In this document: positions 21,312-32,000 of the stretch, in pieces
How positions within the stretch are numbered: the first letter of the stretch is position 1
Layout: every line of letters starts with the position of its first letter
Assembly: GCF_000012905.2 (NCBI RefSeq)
Contig: NC_007493.2
Location: 2,850,001-2,882,000, forward strand
Direction: 5' to 3'
Source of the DNA: Cereibacter sphaeroides 2.4.1
GTDB taxonomy: Bacteria > Pseudomonadota > Alphaproteobacteria > Rhodobacterales > Rhodobacteraceae
DNA: 32,000 nt
Notes under the pieces: generated by a model
Seen by the model: only the letters and a program-made list of their open reading frames with translations
Told to the model about the DNA's origin: nothing
Databases searched by the model: none
Position numbers and translations under genes: made by a program

Positions 21312-22625
21312 TCAGAGATATTCCAGATGCGCGGGGAGCAGCCCCCCGAGCTCGTCGGCAGTGATACCGAGAAACATCGCGCCGTTGCCGCCGCCGAGAT
21401 CGAGAAAGCAGTCGCTGCCCAGATCCTCGATCCGCCCGGTCAGCTCTTCCACCGAAACCAGACCGTCCGCCCCGCCGATGCCGTTGATGTTGCGGGTGAT
21501 CGTCAGCACGTCTTCGGACGAGAAATCCGCGATCGTGTCGATCCCGTGCGCGCTGCGCATCTGGAACGCGTCTGCGCCCGCTCCACCGGTCAGGAAATCG
21601 TCGCCCGCGCCGCCGTTCAGCACGTCGGCACCCTCGCCGCCATCGATCTGGTCACAGCCGCGGCCGCCGAGCATCGTGTCGTTGCCCTCGCCGCCGAAGA
21701 TCACGTCGTCCCCCCGCCCGAGATCCTCGATGGCGGCCACGAAATCGTCGCCCGCTCCCAGATCGATCAGGTCGTCGCCACCGCCGCCGTCCACCCAGTC
21801 GTCGCCCTCGCCCGCCGTGATCTGGTCGTCGCCGTAGCCGCCGAACAGGACGTCGCGCGCCGCGCCCCCGTCCATGACGTCGTTGCCGTTGCCGCCGATC
21901 AGCCGGTCGCTCCCCTCTCCGCCGTCGAGCCGGTCGTCGCCGAGGCCCCCGTCGAGGCTGTCGTCCCCCTCGCCACCGGAGAGGACATCGGCGCCCGCAT
22001 CGCCCATGAGCGTGTCCTGCCCCTCGCCGCCCTCCAGCTGGTCGTCGCCGTCCTGACCGCGGATGACGTCATCGCCCGCGTCGCCCGTCAGCGTGTCGTT
22101 CCCGAACGAAGCCTCGATCCGGTCGTTCCCGTCGCCGCCGTGCATCTCGTCGCCGGTGCCGATCTTCGCCGCGCGCCACGTCTCGAAGGAGAGGCCGCCC
22201 CGGTCAGGATCGGTCGACCAGCGGCTGTCCAGCAGGTCGTCTCCCGCCCCTCCGATCAAGAGGTTCGCACCGGTGCCGCCGTGCAGGCTGTCGTTCCCGG
22301 CGCCGCCCGCCAGAAGGTCGTTGCCCGTTCCGCCCGTCAGGATGTCCGCGCCGCCGCCGCCCCGCACGAGATCGTTGCCGCCGTTGCCGTAGAGCTGGTC
22401 ATTGCCCCAGAGGCCGACGAGCACGTCCCCCTCCGGCCCCCCGGGCAGAGAGGAGCCGAAGGGAGACGCGATCAGGAGGTCGCGGCCGCAACTTCCCATC
22501 GCCAAGGCGCCCCACGGCGGCGCGATCAGGGCGGACTCGAACCGCAGGCCCGTTGCGAAGAAGGAGCCGAGCCAGCCCGGCGGTTCGGCCCAGGGTAAGG
22601 TGGTTGTCGTCACTGCCAGTTCCAT
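21312..22625 (-). CDS. RTX (hemolysin-type calcium-binding repeat) protein, 437 aa, probable T1SS substrate
   Basis: ATG at 22625 is preceded by SD gggagg (complement of 22630-22635). A 61-aa non-repeat N-terminus is followed by 8 in-phase GGxGxDxLx nonapeptides. A 29-aa linker then leads to about 21 more nonapeptides. The non-repeat C-terminal tail (IDTIADFSSEDVLTI...HLEYL) is homologous to the tail of the neighbouring RTX protein. Confidence 0.85.
   Translation of the reverse strand: MELAVTTTTLPWAEPPGWLGSFFATGLRFESALIAPPWGALAMGSCGRDLLIASPFGSSLPGGPEGDVLVGLWGNDQLYGNGGNDLVRGGGGADILTGGTGNDLLAGGAGNDSLHGGTGANLLIGGAGDDLLDSRWSTDPDRGGLSFETWRAAKIGTGDEMHGGDGNDRIEASFGNDTLTGDAGDDVIRGQDGDDQLEGGEGQDTLMGDAGADVLSGGEGDDSLDGGLGDDRLDGGEGSDRLIGGNGNDVMDGGAARDVLFGGYGDDQITAGEGDDWVDGGGGDDLIDLGAGDDFVAAIEDLGRGDDVIFGGEGNDTMLGGRGCDQIDGGEGADVLNGGAGDDFLTGGAGADAFQMRSAHGIDTIADFSSEDVLTITRNINGIGGADGLVSVEELTGRIEDLGSDCFLDLGGGNGAMFLGITADELGGLLPAHLEYL
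21561..22442 (-). repeat. 27-bp periodic coding repeats (RTX nonapeptides), two blocks split by a 29-codon linker
   Basis: Block A is residues 62-133 (22227-22442), with 8 in-phase units. The linker SRWSTDPDRGGLSFETWRAAKIGTGDEMH follows. Block B is residues 163-355 (21561-22139), with about 21 units and one 4-residue phase break (AIEDLGRGDDVIF). Confidence 0.9.
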
Positions 22626-22844
22626 GGAGCCTCCCGAAGCGTCCTTGGCGGCGCGGCCCCTGCCGCAACCCGCAGGCGACCATCAAGCGACGAGCCTGTT
22701 ACGCAGGAGTTAAGGCTTCAATCTGAAGTGGTGGCAGTTTCGACAAAGCCTAAACAACCAAAGGCTGAGTTTAAGGCCCTGTTAACACCCTCGGAGCAGA
22801 GGTTTGCACACGCAGAAAGTGCGGGTTCAAGGAGAGGGGTTTCC
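22626..22844. promoter_or_regulatory. Divergent control region between the two RTX genes, locally low GC
   Basis: 219 bp separate the two start codons. I counted 49 G+C in nt 22701-22800, against roughly 68-70% in the flanks. Repeated words are CCTGTTA (22695, 22778), GTTAAGGC/GTTTAAGGC (22709, 22769) and AAGGCT (22712, 22761). Both SD sequences sit at the edges. Confidence 0.5.
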
Positions 22845-30485: not shown

Positions 30486-32000
30486 CCCCGCCGAACCGGC
30501 CGGCCTCTACCGGCTCATCCTGCGCGAGGCAGCTCTTGGGGCGGGGGCGGCAGCCTTTGTGGGCTTCTTCGTGAATCTCCTCCACCTCGCCTTGCCGCTC
30601 TATAATGCGCAGGTTTACGACCGGGTGATCGGCAGCGCCAATCTCGACACGCTGGTGGCCCTCACAGGGCTGGTCGCGATCCTGCTCGTCTTCGGCGCGG
30701 TCCTCGACGTGCTGCGGGCCCGGATCTTCGCGATCCTCGCGGCGCGGCTGGCCGGACAGCTCGGCCAGCCCGTCTTCGTGGCAGCCGTCGAGACCGCGCT
30801 CCGTGGCGGCCCCACCGCTGCGGCCGAGGGGATGCGCGCCGTGGCCGACCTCCGCAGCTTCCTCGCGGGCGGGGCCATCGCGCTGCCGATCGACCTGACC
30901 TTCACTCCGGTCCTCCTCTTGGTTCTCTTCGCCCTCGATCCGGCCTACGGCCTGATCGGTCTCGGCGGGGCCGCCGCTCTGGCCGGGACGGGCATCGTGA
31001 CGGAGATCCTCGCCCGCCGCCCCGTGGCCAGCGCGCTCGCGGCGGGCGGCAGCGTGCAGGCCGAGACCGCGACCGCCCTGCGCAGCGCCGAAGTCATTGC
31101 GGCCATGGGAATGCTGCCAGACATCGCCCGGCGCTGGCGAAGGGCTCAGGCGCGGTCGCTCGCGGCCGCCGATCGCGGGCAGGCGCGGGCCAAGGCCCTG
31201 TCCTCGCTGGCGCGCTTCCTCCGCACCGCCATCCAGATCGCCGTGATCTGCACCGGCACGACCCTTGTCGTCGATCAGGCCGCCACCATCGGCACCATCG
31301 TGGCGGCGATGGCGATCATGTCCCGCCTGCTCCTGCCGTTCGAGCATCTGATCGACGGCTGGCGGCAATGGATGGATGCGGCCGAGGCGCACGGTCATCT
31401 GCGGCGCCTCCTGCGAGAAGGCGGCAGCCCCCGCTCGTCCCTGCCCGCGCCGGTCGGGCGCGCGCTGCTGGTGGCCGACCGCGTCACCTATATCCCTGCG
31501 GGCCAAGACCTGCCCCTTCTGCGCAACGTCTCGTTCCGCATCGAACCCGGCGAGCTCCTCGGCGTCATCGGCCCGTCGGGCGCAGGCAAATCGACGCTCG
31601 CGCGGCTGACGGTCGGTCTCTGGCCGCCCAGCGCCGGCGGTCTTTTCCTCGACGGACAAAGCACCTTTCTCCACGAACGGACGAGCTTCGGACGGGCGGT
31701 GGGCTATCTGCCGCAGGAGCCGCTTCTGCTCGACGGCAGCGTGCGCGACAACATCGCGCGCTTCCGGGACGCGCCGATGGACGAGGTGATCGCCGCCGCC
31801 CGGCAGGCCGGCGTGCACGAGCTGATCGGCCGCCTTCCGAGGGGCTACGGCACGCGGCTCGCCGATGCCGGCGCGCGGCTGAGCGGGGGACAGCGCCAGC
31901 GGATCGCGCTCGCCCGGGCCATCTTCGGCGACCCGCAGCTTCTCGTGCTCGATGAACCGAATGCCAGCCTCGATGCGGAAGGCGAGGCCGCGCTGGTCTC
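30478..32000 (+). CDS. Type I secretion system ABC transporter (PrtD/AprD/RsaD type, no C39 or CLD domain), 3' end outside window
   Basis: This gene is not in the ORF track because it has no stop in the window. My translation from ATG 30478 is MADPAEPAGLYRLILREAALG...LLHLALPLYNAQVYDRVIGS (typical start of the T1SS ABC membrane domain). It has Walker A GPSGAGKST (31570-31596), signature LSGGQRQRIALARA and Walker B LLVLDEP. The ATG overlaps the GT4b stop (ATGGCTGA, 30478-30485). Confidence 0.9.
   Translation, partial: MADPAEPAGLYRLILREAALGAGAAAFVGFFVNLLHLALPLYNAQVYDRVIGSANLDTLVALTGLVAILLVFGAVLDVLRARIFAILAARLAGQLGQPVFVAAVETALRGGPTAAAEGMRAVADLRSFLAGGAIALPIDLTFTPVLLLVLFALDPAYGLIGLGGAAALAGTGIVTEILARRPVASALAAGGSVQAETATALRSAEVIAAMGMLPDIARRWRRAQARSLAAADRGQARAKALSSLARFLRTAIQIAVICTGTTLVVDQAATIGTIVAAMAIMSRLLLPFEHLIDGWRQWMDAAEAHGHLRRLLREGGSPRSSLPAPVGRALLVADRVTYIPAGQDLPLLRNVSFRIEPGELLGVIGPSGAGKSTLARLTVGLWPPSAGGLFLDGQSTFLHERTSFGRAVGYLPQEPLLLDGSVRDNIARFRDAPMDEVIAAARQAGVHELIGRLPRGYGTRLADAGARLSGGQRQRIALARAIFGDPQLLVLDEPNASLDAEGEAALV

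Follow-up and report, generated by a model that had tools for sequence, protein, structure and literature searches.

A type I secretion- and RTX-linked glycosyltransferase cassette in Cereibacter sphaeroides related to the galactoglucan module of Sinorhizobium meliloti

Introduction

In Sinorhizobium meliloti, the protein ExpE1 (WgeA) is secreted by ExpD1/ExpD2 together with TolC and is required for production of the polysaccharide galactoglucan, or exopolysaccharide II (EPS II) (PMC1403797, PMC2912261). Mutation of expD and loss of ExpE1 secretion abolish EPS II, and galactoglucan is lost because ExpE1 is no longer secreted (PMC1403797, PMC2912261). Synthesis of EPS II is not Wzx/Wzy-dependent and has been modelled on an ATP-binding cassette (ABC) transporter of the type I secretion system (T1SS) kind (bioRxiv 10.64898/2026.08.21.746188). 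Two questions have stood since the exp cluster was described in 1997-2000: by what means polymers of the galactoglucan type are primed, polymerised and exported, and what makes a calcium-binding protein secreted by a T1SS necessary. Here we analyse a stretch of 32,000 nucleotides from Cereibacter (Rhodobacter) sphaeroides, referred to throughout as the window, in which a cassette of RTX, glycosyltransferase (GT) and T1SS genes begins at position 21312 and runs past the window end.

A preliminary description of this DNA had named the S. meliloti exp (wg) cluster as an analogue. The link was right, and the relationship proves closer than analogy: the two loci are homologous and largely collinear, and from orthology and gene order the cassette appears to be a trimmed Paracoccaceae version of the wge/wgd (expE/expD) galactoglucan module. 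It is a reduced form of a known system, not a new kind of protein glycosylation.

Results

Orthology with the exp/wg cluster

Window positions 20092-32000 are 100% identical to assembly GCA_009767555.1 (locus L001) and 99.95% identical to the CP047037.1 chromosome (locus L002). Because the genome has a G+C content of ~70%, raw open reading frame (ORF) lists are crowded with false frames, and ORFs were retained only if backed by family matches or orthologues. The cassette consists of the following features, for which orthologue names are predictions and lengths are in amino acids (aa).

21312-22625, minus strand: RTX-A, 437 aa, beta-roll protein (PF00353)
22626-22844, no strand: divergent intergenic region between RTX-A and RTX-B, from reading of the sequence
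22845-23687, plus strand: RTX-B, 280 aa, predicted ExpE1/WgeA orthologue (PF00353)
23748-25793, plus strand: orphan 1, 681 aa, predicted ExpE2/WgeB orthologue by position and profile
25793-27034, plus strand: GT4a, 413 aa, predicted ExpE4/WgeD orthologue (PF13692, PF00534, PF13439)
27031-29211, plus strand: orphan 2, 726 aa, predicted ExpE6/WgeF orthologue by full-length identity
29208-30485, plus strand: GT4b, 425 aa, TTG start, predicted ExpE7/WgeG orthologue with Pfam GT4 domains
30478-32000, plus strand, cut by the window end at residue 507 of 573: ABC permease/ATPase of a PrtD-type T1SS, predicted ExpD1/WgdA orthologue (TIGR01842)

A tblastn search of plasmids with orphan 2 returned matches on 70 Sinorhizobium megaplasmids, on 13 Azospirillum plasmids and on plasmids of Paracoccus yeei. 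On its T1SS side, the annotated S. meliloti region carries rfbA, a pyruvyl transferase gene and genes for a MarR regulator (ExpG), the ABC protein ExpD1 and the HlyD protein ExpD2. The wge side encodes the calcium-binding ExpE1, the 749-aa GT2 protein ExpE2, the methyltransferase ExpE3, the GT4 protein ExpE4, the 234-aa ExpE5, the 738-aa ExpE6, the GT4 protein ExpE7 and the 325-aa ExpE8. This layout is that of the published exp/wg galactoglucan cluster (PMC1403797, PMC3233446). Eight genes of the C. sphaeroides locus (E1, E2, E4, E5, E6, E7, D1 and D2) have one-to-one orthologues in the S. meliloti exp region and in an Azospirillum cluster. As in the wge/wgd module, an ExpE1-type RTX gene accompanies the GT genes, the exporter is an ExpD1/ExpD2-type T1SS, and ExpE4- and ExpE7-type GT4s flank an ExpE6-type protein.

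Both RTX proteins match PF00353 (E 5e-58 for RTX-A and 4e-72 for RTX-B). They contain 17 and 15 GGxGxDx[LIVFM] nonapeptides, respectively, with a Gly content of 24-26%, and their tandem GGxGxDxUx repeats are followed by a non-cleaved, non-repeat C-terminal domain common to the two. RTX-B aligns over its full length with a 273-aa ExpE1-type protein of Azospirillum (46% identity, E 4e-62) and has in common with S. meliloti ExpE1 both the N-terminus MAT[ILV]xGG and the C-terminal domain; we predict that it is the ExpE1/WgeA orthologue. RTX-A, which has a non-repeat insert of 40 residues and whose C-terminal domain resembles that of ExpE1 in alignments, is 44% identical to the Azospirillum protein (E 5e-47) and is a predicted ExpE1 paralogue. 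In almost every Paracoccaceae locus it lies on the minus strand beside RTX-B. Each of the clusters examined from S. meliloti (L051) and Azospirillum (L009) has a single calcium-binding gene and no RTX-A counterpart, so the second copy may be specific to Paracoccaceae. Searches of Pfam and NCBIfam detected no S-layer, adhesin or enzyme domain in either protein.

The N-terminus MAT[ILV]xGG (22845-22870 in RTX-B) is invariant in ExpE1 orthologues from Cereibacter, Paracoccus, Amaricoccus, Azospirillum and Sinorhizobium. This conservation is unexpected, since the signal of T1SS substrates is C-terminal, and the motif may represent a beta-roll cap or a functional site.

GT4a is 41-44% identical to ExpE4, and GT4b is 52-56% identical to ExpE7. 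Identity is ~35% between the ExpE4 and ExpE7 groups and 36% between GT4a and GT4b. Both C. sphaeroides proteins contain the N- and C-terminal domains of the GT-B fold above Pfam cut-offs together with an EX7E motif, and they are predicted to be soluble GT4 enzymes of the retaining type. Matches in Pfam and NCBIfam were to generic GT4 families, with none to the known protein glycosyltransferase families GT41 (HMW1C) or the TibC/AAH heptosyltransferases. Four invariant Cys residues (C...C...CxxC) occupy an insertion in the N-terminal domain of GT4a, GT4b and the ExpE4 and ExpE7 orthologues. The arrangement is suggestive of a zinc site peculiar to this subfamily of GT4 enzymes.

The ABC protein scores 497.8 bits against TIGR01842 as the fragment encoded in the window and 551.2 bits as the full-length L001 protein, against a cut-off of 510.15. 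The full-length protein has 573 aa and is identical to the window fragment over residues 1-507; its TIGR01842 match begins at residue 25. With no N-terminal C39 or CLD domain, it falls in the PrtD subfamily, and its 44-49% identity to ExpD1 of S. meliloti and Azospirillum identifies it as the probable ExpD1/WgdA orthologue.

These results bear out much of what the preliminary description had read from the letters of the sequence. The two divergent RTX genes and their shared C-terminal tail are upheld by family matches and alignment. Four stop/start overlaps chain five genes exactly as described (TGATG at 25791, ATGA at 27031, TTGA at 29208 and ATGGCTGA at 30478, where the GT4b and ABC genes overlap by 8 nucleotides), and the chain does end in a PrtD-type ABC exporter. 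The four intervening proteins had been judged by eye to be free of long hydrophobic helices. In agreement, a Kyte-Doolittle scan with 19-residue windows found no convincing transmembrane (TM) segment in GT4a, orphan 1, orphan 2 or GT4b; the only stretch reaching 1.6, at a borderline 1.70, is the strand of orphan 1 that bears a degenerate DxD motif (residues 516-535).

Two GT-like proteins with degenerate catalytic motifs

Neither orphan matched Pfam, NCBIfam or PDB sequences, and direct BLASTP of one against the other reached only E 0.037. Comparison of profiles was more revealing. Orphan 1 aligns with ExpE2-type proteins by hhalign over nearly its full length (residues 21-613; probability 99.4%, E 1e-21) and retains the overall ExpE2 architecture, a beta-rich N-terminal region followed by a GT2-like domain. 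ExpE2-type proteins have a genuine GT2 domain here (PF00535), in which the motifs VLDSP, LNSDV and GDYEDSD occur. In the alignment, Cereibacter orphan 1 has lost the first Asp and the Asp of the DxD motif, reading LGATV in place of LNSDV; the DxD Asp is retained in Paracoccus and Amaricoccus (LGGDV, LGADV) and is Thr in Cereibacter. The C-terminal part of the protein has also decayed in some lineages. Orphan 1 does not, then, have the intact motifs of the ExpE2/WgeB GT2 beta-glucosyltransferase. A word-indexed homologue search gave only five clusters for this protein, which left its AF2 model poor (predicted local distance difference test [pLDDT] score 46) and unusable.

Orphan 2 is 27-29% identical over its full length to a 724-aa Azospirillum protein and to the 738-aa S. 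meliloti ExpE6 (E 1e-55 and 8e-44, respectively), and we assign it as the putative ExpE6/WgeF orthologue. Its AF2 model (pLDDT 89) comprises three beta-sandwich regions and a C-terminal GT-A fold, and Foldseek matched the C-terminal domain to GT-A enzymes (E ~1e-7). Orphan 2 also aligns with ExpE2 by hhalign (probability 99.4%). The nucleotide-binding Asp, DxD and ED motifs of GT2 enzymes are absent from orphan 2, from ExpE6 and from the whole family, which numbers 197 representatives (50%-identity clusters) at E<=1e-30. The GT-A fold is thus present in the orphan 2 model, and its catalytic motifs are missing from orphan 2, ExpE6 and Cereibacter orphan 1. The top Foldseek matches of orphan 2 were to polypeptide GalNAc-transferases; we rejected these as support for protein glycosylation, as they reflect a generic GT-A fold (TM-score ~0.25, 13% identity).

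The locus had been described as encoding four glycosyltransferase-like proteins. This holds for GT4a and GT4b. The orphans, which lack database matches and catalytic motifs, are GT-A-like by profile and model only, and the lost motifs suggest that both are probably non-catalytic GT-like partners. For annotation, these comparisons supply names, ExpE2-like and ExpE6-like, for two large families of "hypothetical protein".

Genes beyond the window

In L001, the ABC gene is followed by genes for an HlyD-type adaptor (membrane fusion protein, MFP), a 268-aa CatB/Vat-type hexapeptide O-acetyltransferase and a 195-aa protein. Farther 3', the cassette gives way to unrelated genes: dnaE, a lytic transglycosylase gene and the gene for RNase R. 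The adaptor, directly downstream of the exporter, is the ExpD2 orthologue, and its C. johrii orthologue passes TIGR01843. The 195-aa protein (L001 15284-15871, ~3.1 kb past the window end) is the ExpE5/WgeE orthologue (33% identity, E 7e-14). It has a hydrophobic C-terminal tail (residues 170-195), and its N-terminal part carries the GW..D beta-sandwich signature also seen in orphan 2 and ExpE2.

The preliminary description had noted the lack of conventional polysaccharide machinery in the window and had called for inspection of the downstream sequence, which yields the HlyD-type MFP and no complete conventional polysaccharide pathway. No gene for Wzx/Wzy, Wzm/Wzt, a priming transferase or sugar-nucleotide synthesis lies in the window or the 10 kb downstream, and no TolC gene lies within 10 kb downstream. 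TolC genes are commonly unlinked, including in S. meliloti (PMC2912261).

An apparently split MFP gene and an odd upstream gene order in L001 were dismissed as products of runs of N. In L002 (CP047037.1), a one-nucleotide indel relative to L001 at ~13130-13210 shifts the reading frame near the start of the HlyD-type adaptor gene, where an MFP gene is not called; this is either a real frameshift in strain CP047037.1 or a sequencing error.

Conservation, mobility and selection

A scan with one genome per species recovered 41 loci. Around 30 Paracoccaceae species keep the order RTX (minus strand), RTX (plus strand), orphan 1, GT4a, orphan 2, GT4b, ABC and MFP; they belong to Cereibacter, Rhodobacter, Paenirhodobacter, Paracoccus and Amaricoccus, together with related metagenome-assembled genomes. 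The acetyltransferase and ExpE5-like genes are also present in most Paracoccaceae loci, and a TPR protein gene in some. A GalE-type epimerase gene sits beside RTX-A in six Paracoccaceae loci and also adjoins the Azospirillum cluster. The flanks of the cassette are unrelated between genera; in P. yeei it resides on plasmids, between ectoine and lipoate genes. Distant family members keep a GT4, an ExpE6-like gene and a second GT4 in this order, to which one locus (L054) adds a T1SS-type ABC gene and a pyruvyl transferase gene; another (L055) has the full wge-type order. The synteny of the GT and orphan genes with RTX and T1SS genes is invariant across three alphaproteobacterial orders. Co-occurrence had been suggested as a check on the locus, and it is found in every one of the ~30 Paracoccaceae species, in Azospirillum and in Sinorhizobium.

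All cassette genes are under purifying selection, with ratios of nonsynonymous to synonymous substitution (dN/dS) of 0.08-0.41: 0.27-0.33 for RTX-A, 0.10-0.23 for RTX-B, 0.34-0.41 for orphan 1, 0.16-0.30 for orphan 2 and 0.08-0.17 for the GT4 and ABC genes. Orphan 1 is the most relaxed, yet constrained.

Many Paracoccaceae relatives (L013-L016, L018, L021, L023-L025, L029, L034, L035 and L038) carry, on the minus strand between the acetyltransferase and ExpE5-like genes, a homologue of a 431-aa hypothetical protein of Azospirillum. The Amaricoccus copy has a hydrophobic N-terminal segment. The gene is absent from C. sphaeroides, C. johrii and Rhodobacter sp. NSM.

Expression signals and upstream neighbours

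The preferred starts of RTX-B and orphan 1 are ATG 22845, preceded by the ribosome-binding site AGGAGAGGGG, and ATG 23748. A promoter scan of the divergent intergenic region 22626-22844 found no sigma-70 consensus, so both RTX promoters are only presumed to lie within it. A GC-rich hairpin of 10 bp (23696-23721), lacking a T tract, lies in the gap separating the RTX-B stop codon from the start of orphan 1 and could attenuate read-through into the GT genes; its fold is not significant relative to shuffled sequences (z -1.66).

Upstream of the cassette, the window carries the housekeeping genes rmuC, mutL, purH, rsmB, rpsO and pnp and two M16 peptidase genes. Among them are two further ORFs. A heparinase II/III-like ORF (9341-11044, minus strand; PF07940, E 5e-63) lies between purH and rsmB, in the highest-GC stretch of the window (0.78), and an ORF with an NAGPA phosphodiester-glycosidase domain (E 4e-17) occupies 14230-14967 on the plus strand.

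Discussion

A proposed route to a secreted polysaccharide

The likeliest function of the cassette, at a probability of roughly 0.68, is production of an exopolysaccharide that depends on a T1SS and its RTX substrates, as a Paracoccaceae version of the wge/wgd module. This agrees with the first of two possibilities raised in the preliminary description, a surface glycan that needs the secreted beta-roll proteins for its assembly, and it gains support from orthology to the S. meliloti module. From orthology, conserved synteny, domain content, motif loss and purifying selection, we infer a model that covers the nature of the product, a scaffold role for the orphans, the target of acetylation and the route of export. 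In this model, the two soluble GT4s (ExpE4- and ExpE7-like) would use housekeeping UDP-sugars to assemble a hexose polymer in the cytoplasm. The ExpE2- and ExpE6-like proteins, GT-A-like with lost catalytic motifs, would probably act as scaffolds or acceptor-binding partners, and the CatB-type acetyltransferase encoded just past the window may O-acetylate the polymer. The PrtD-type ABC protein and the HlyD-type adaptor, with an unlinked TolC, are predicted to secrete RTX-B and its paralogue RTX-A. As in S. meliloti, the polymer would reach the cell exterior only if the RTX proteins are secreted. The polymer itself may leave via the same T1SS or in strict dependence on it; we tie its export to this system because the module, in all its versions, conserves no second exporter. 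Also in favour of the assignment are the GalE-type epimerase genes that adjoin some of the clusters and the listing of an R. sphaeroides gene, possibly the one in the window, as expE1 under "galactoglucan metabolism" (PMC6909082, PMC8034643).

Several points weigh against this assignment. The wga operon (dTDP-sugar genes and WgaB/WgaC), wgcA and wggR are absent from the window, the 10 kb downstream and the adjacent regions in Paracoccaceae, and the C. sphaeroides cassette has no ExpE3 methyltransferase, ExpE8 or pyruvyl transferase. The ExpE2 orthologue lacks GT2 motifs, which leaves only retaining-type GT4s; galactoglucan contains beta-linked glucose, and the product therefore cannot be assumed to be galactoglucan. 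Given the absence of wga, wgcA and wggR, of the methyl and pyruvyl transferases and of an inverting GT2 with intact motifs, the polymer is probably a relative of galactoglucan rather than galactoglucan itself. In R. sphaeroides HY01, the gene listed as expE1, again possibly the window gene, is down (-1.99) under phosphate limitation, the opposite of S. meliloti, where the exp genes are induced by phosphate starvation (PMC6909082). The searchable literature holds no report of an exopolysaccharide from this locus that we could find, and our literature search found no paper describing the cassette, its reduced gene set or its degenerate GT-like proteins. Finally, passage of any polysaccharide through a protein-type T1SS is unexplained, even in S. 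meliloti.

Alternative explanations

The second possibility raised in the preliminary description was that the soluble GT4s and their GT-A-like partners glycosylate RTX-B and/or RTX-A in the cytoplasm, before export of the glycoprotein by the T1SS. We found no positive evidence for this and consider it unlikely, because the orthologous S. meliloti genes are needed for, and known for, a free polysaccharide. Some features do point in its direction. A polyprenyl-phosphate priming transferase, a flippase, a polymerase and Wzm/Wzt are not conserved in the module across more than 40 loci from three alphaproteobacterial orders, all of its GTs lack TM segments, and its exporter is a protein-type PrtD ABC transporter. 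The GT operon is headed by an RTX gene. The combination of an active GT4 and an inactive GT-like partner is reminiscent of GtfA/GtfB, and the N-terminus of ExpE1 is invariant despite the C-terminal location of the T1SS signal, although that motif may merely cap the beta-roll. EPS II also genetically requires ExpE1 (PMC1403797). The reviews consulted, however, do not report glycosylated ExpE1, the GTs show no homology to GT41 HMW1C or TibC/AAH in Pfam or NCBIfam, and the structural matches to polypeptide GalNAc-transferases have low TM-scores (0.25) and reflect a generic GT-A fold. In the strong form of this idea, EPS II-type polymers would have their missing primer or carrier in the beta-roll protein: ExpE1-type proteins would serve as acceptors on which the GT4s start or build a glycan in the cytoplasm, and the PrtD-type T1SS would export the conjugate. 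We regard this too as improbable. If true, it would explain why wge/wgd-type modules lack a lipid-carrier priming enzyme, a flippase and a polymerase, why EPS II needs ExpE1 and the exporter, and why, in three alphaproteobacterial orders, the GT operon begins with an RTX gene.

A third view would make the RTX proteins the real product, as a surface layer, adhesin or matrix, with the GT genes supplying a lipopolysaccharide or capsule side-chain glycan that anchors them, much as in Caulobacter. Two beta-roll proteins of an abundant type with a dedicated T1SS, encoded in the same operon as glycan genes, would suit such an arrangement. It nevertheless seems very unlikely, as the proteins are small (280 and 437 aa), nearly pure repeat and free of S-layer or adhesin domains, the cassette lacks lipid-linked glycan machinery, and orthology is to the exp system and not to rsaA or O-antigen genes. 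The cassette could also be a decaying or silent EPS II remnant in which the wga genes and the ExpE2 active site are lost, the polymer is no longer made and RTX secretion survives. The missing wga, wgcA and wggR genes, the degenerate orphan 1, the loss of the 431-aa protein gene from C. sphaeroides and the possible MFP frameshift in strain CP047037.1 all fit this picture, which we nonetheless consider unlikely: dN/dS is well under 1 for all genes, the stop/start overlaps are intact, and the Azospirillum cluster (L009) likewise lacks adjoining wga-type genes. Because the same reduced gene set is kept in ~30 species and is also borne on plasmids, we argue that it is a working unit. Chance adjacency of functionally unrelated GT and RTX/T1SS genes, lastly, is extremely improbable and is effectively refuted by the synteny across three orders; the translational coupling of GT4b to the ABC gene through their 8-nucleotide overlap and the genetic dependence seen in S. 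meliloti (PMC1403797) tell against it as well.

If the cassette does direct a T1SS/RTX-dependent exopolysaccharide, as we favour, it offers a simpler model for asking whether a protein-type T1SS moves a glycan or a glycoconjugate. It comprises ~10 genes in ~13 kb, is apparently self-contained and sometimes plasmid-borne, and occurs in the genetically tractable C. sphaeroides. It has been stripped to two GT4s that are active by motif, two apparently non-catalytic GT-A-like proteins, one or two RTX proteins and a T1SS.

Comparison with known systems

The Caulobacter RsaA-RsaDE system combines a PrtD/RsaD-type ABC protein with an RTX-type substrate whose function needs a glycan. RsaA is a large S-layer protein anchored to conventionally made O-antigen, and we saw no homology between this system and the GT or orphan genes of the C. 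sphaeroides locus. In Gram-positive bacteria, serine-rich-repeat adhesins exported by the accessory Sec system are served by GtfA/GtfB, in which a soluble GT4 is joined by a GT-like partner that is catalytically inactive. The likeness to C. sphaeroides lies in a repeat-protein substrate and a dedicated exporter encoded in one locus, a functional analogy rather than membership; the export system and the substrate chemistry differ. PrsDE of Rhizobium leguminosarum, also a T1SS for RTX-repeat proteins, has substrates that affect an exopolysaccharide (PMC1403797). Its substrates (PlyA/PlyB, NodO) include glycanases that trim a Wzx/Wzy-made exopolysaccharide, whereas no enzyme domain is present in RTX-A or RTX-B, and the C. 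sphaeroides GTs share an operon with the T1SS.

The Azospirillum cluster (for example on A. argentinense plasmid p2, NZ_CP032323.1) has the same core, with identities of 46% for the ExpE1-type protein, 56% for ExpE7 and 49% for the ABC protein. Like the C. sphaeroides cassette, it stands alone without wga-type genes in the locus examined. Unlike that cassette, it encodes an intact GT2 (783 aa), a methyltransferase, a pyruvyl transferase, a MarR regulator and GalE, and it has a single RTX gene.

The exp/wg cluster of S. meliloti remains the closest described relative. The two loci share the E1-E2-E4-E6-E7 order, a T1SS ABC protein and MFP, a secreted RTX protein, soluble GTs and the lack of Wzx/Wzy. 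In C. sphaeroides, the ExpE2 orthologue is without GT2 motifs, the T1SS genes lie after the GT genes rather than before them, ExpE5 has been relocated to the end, and the locus has gained a divergent second RTX gene and a CatB-type acetyltransferase.

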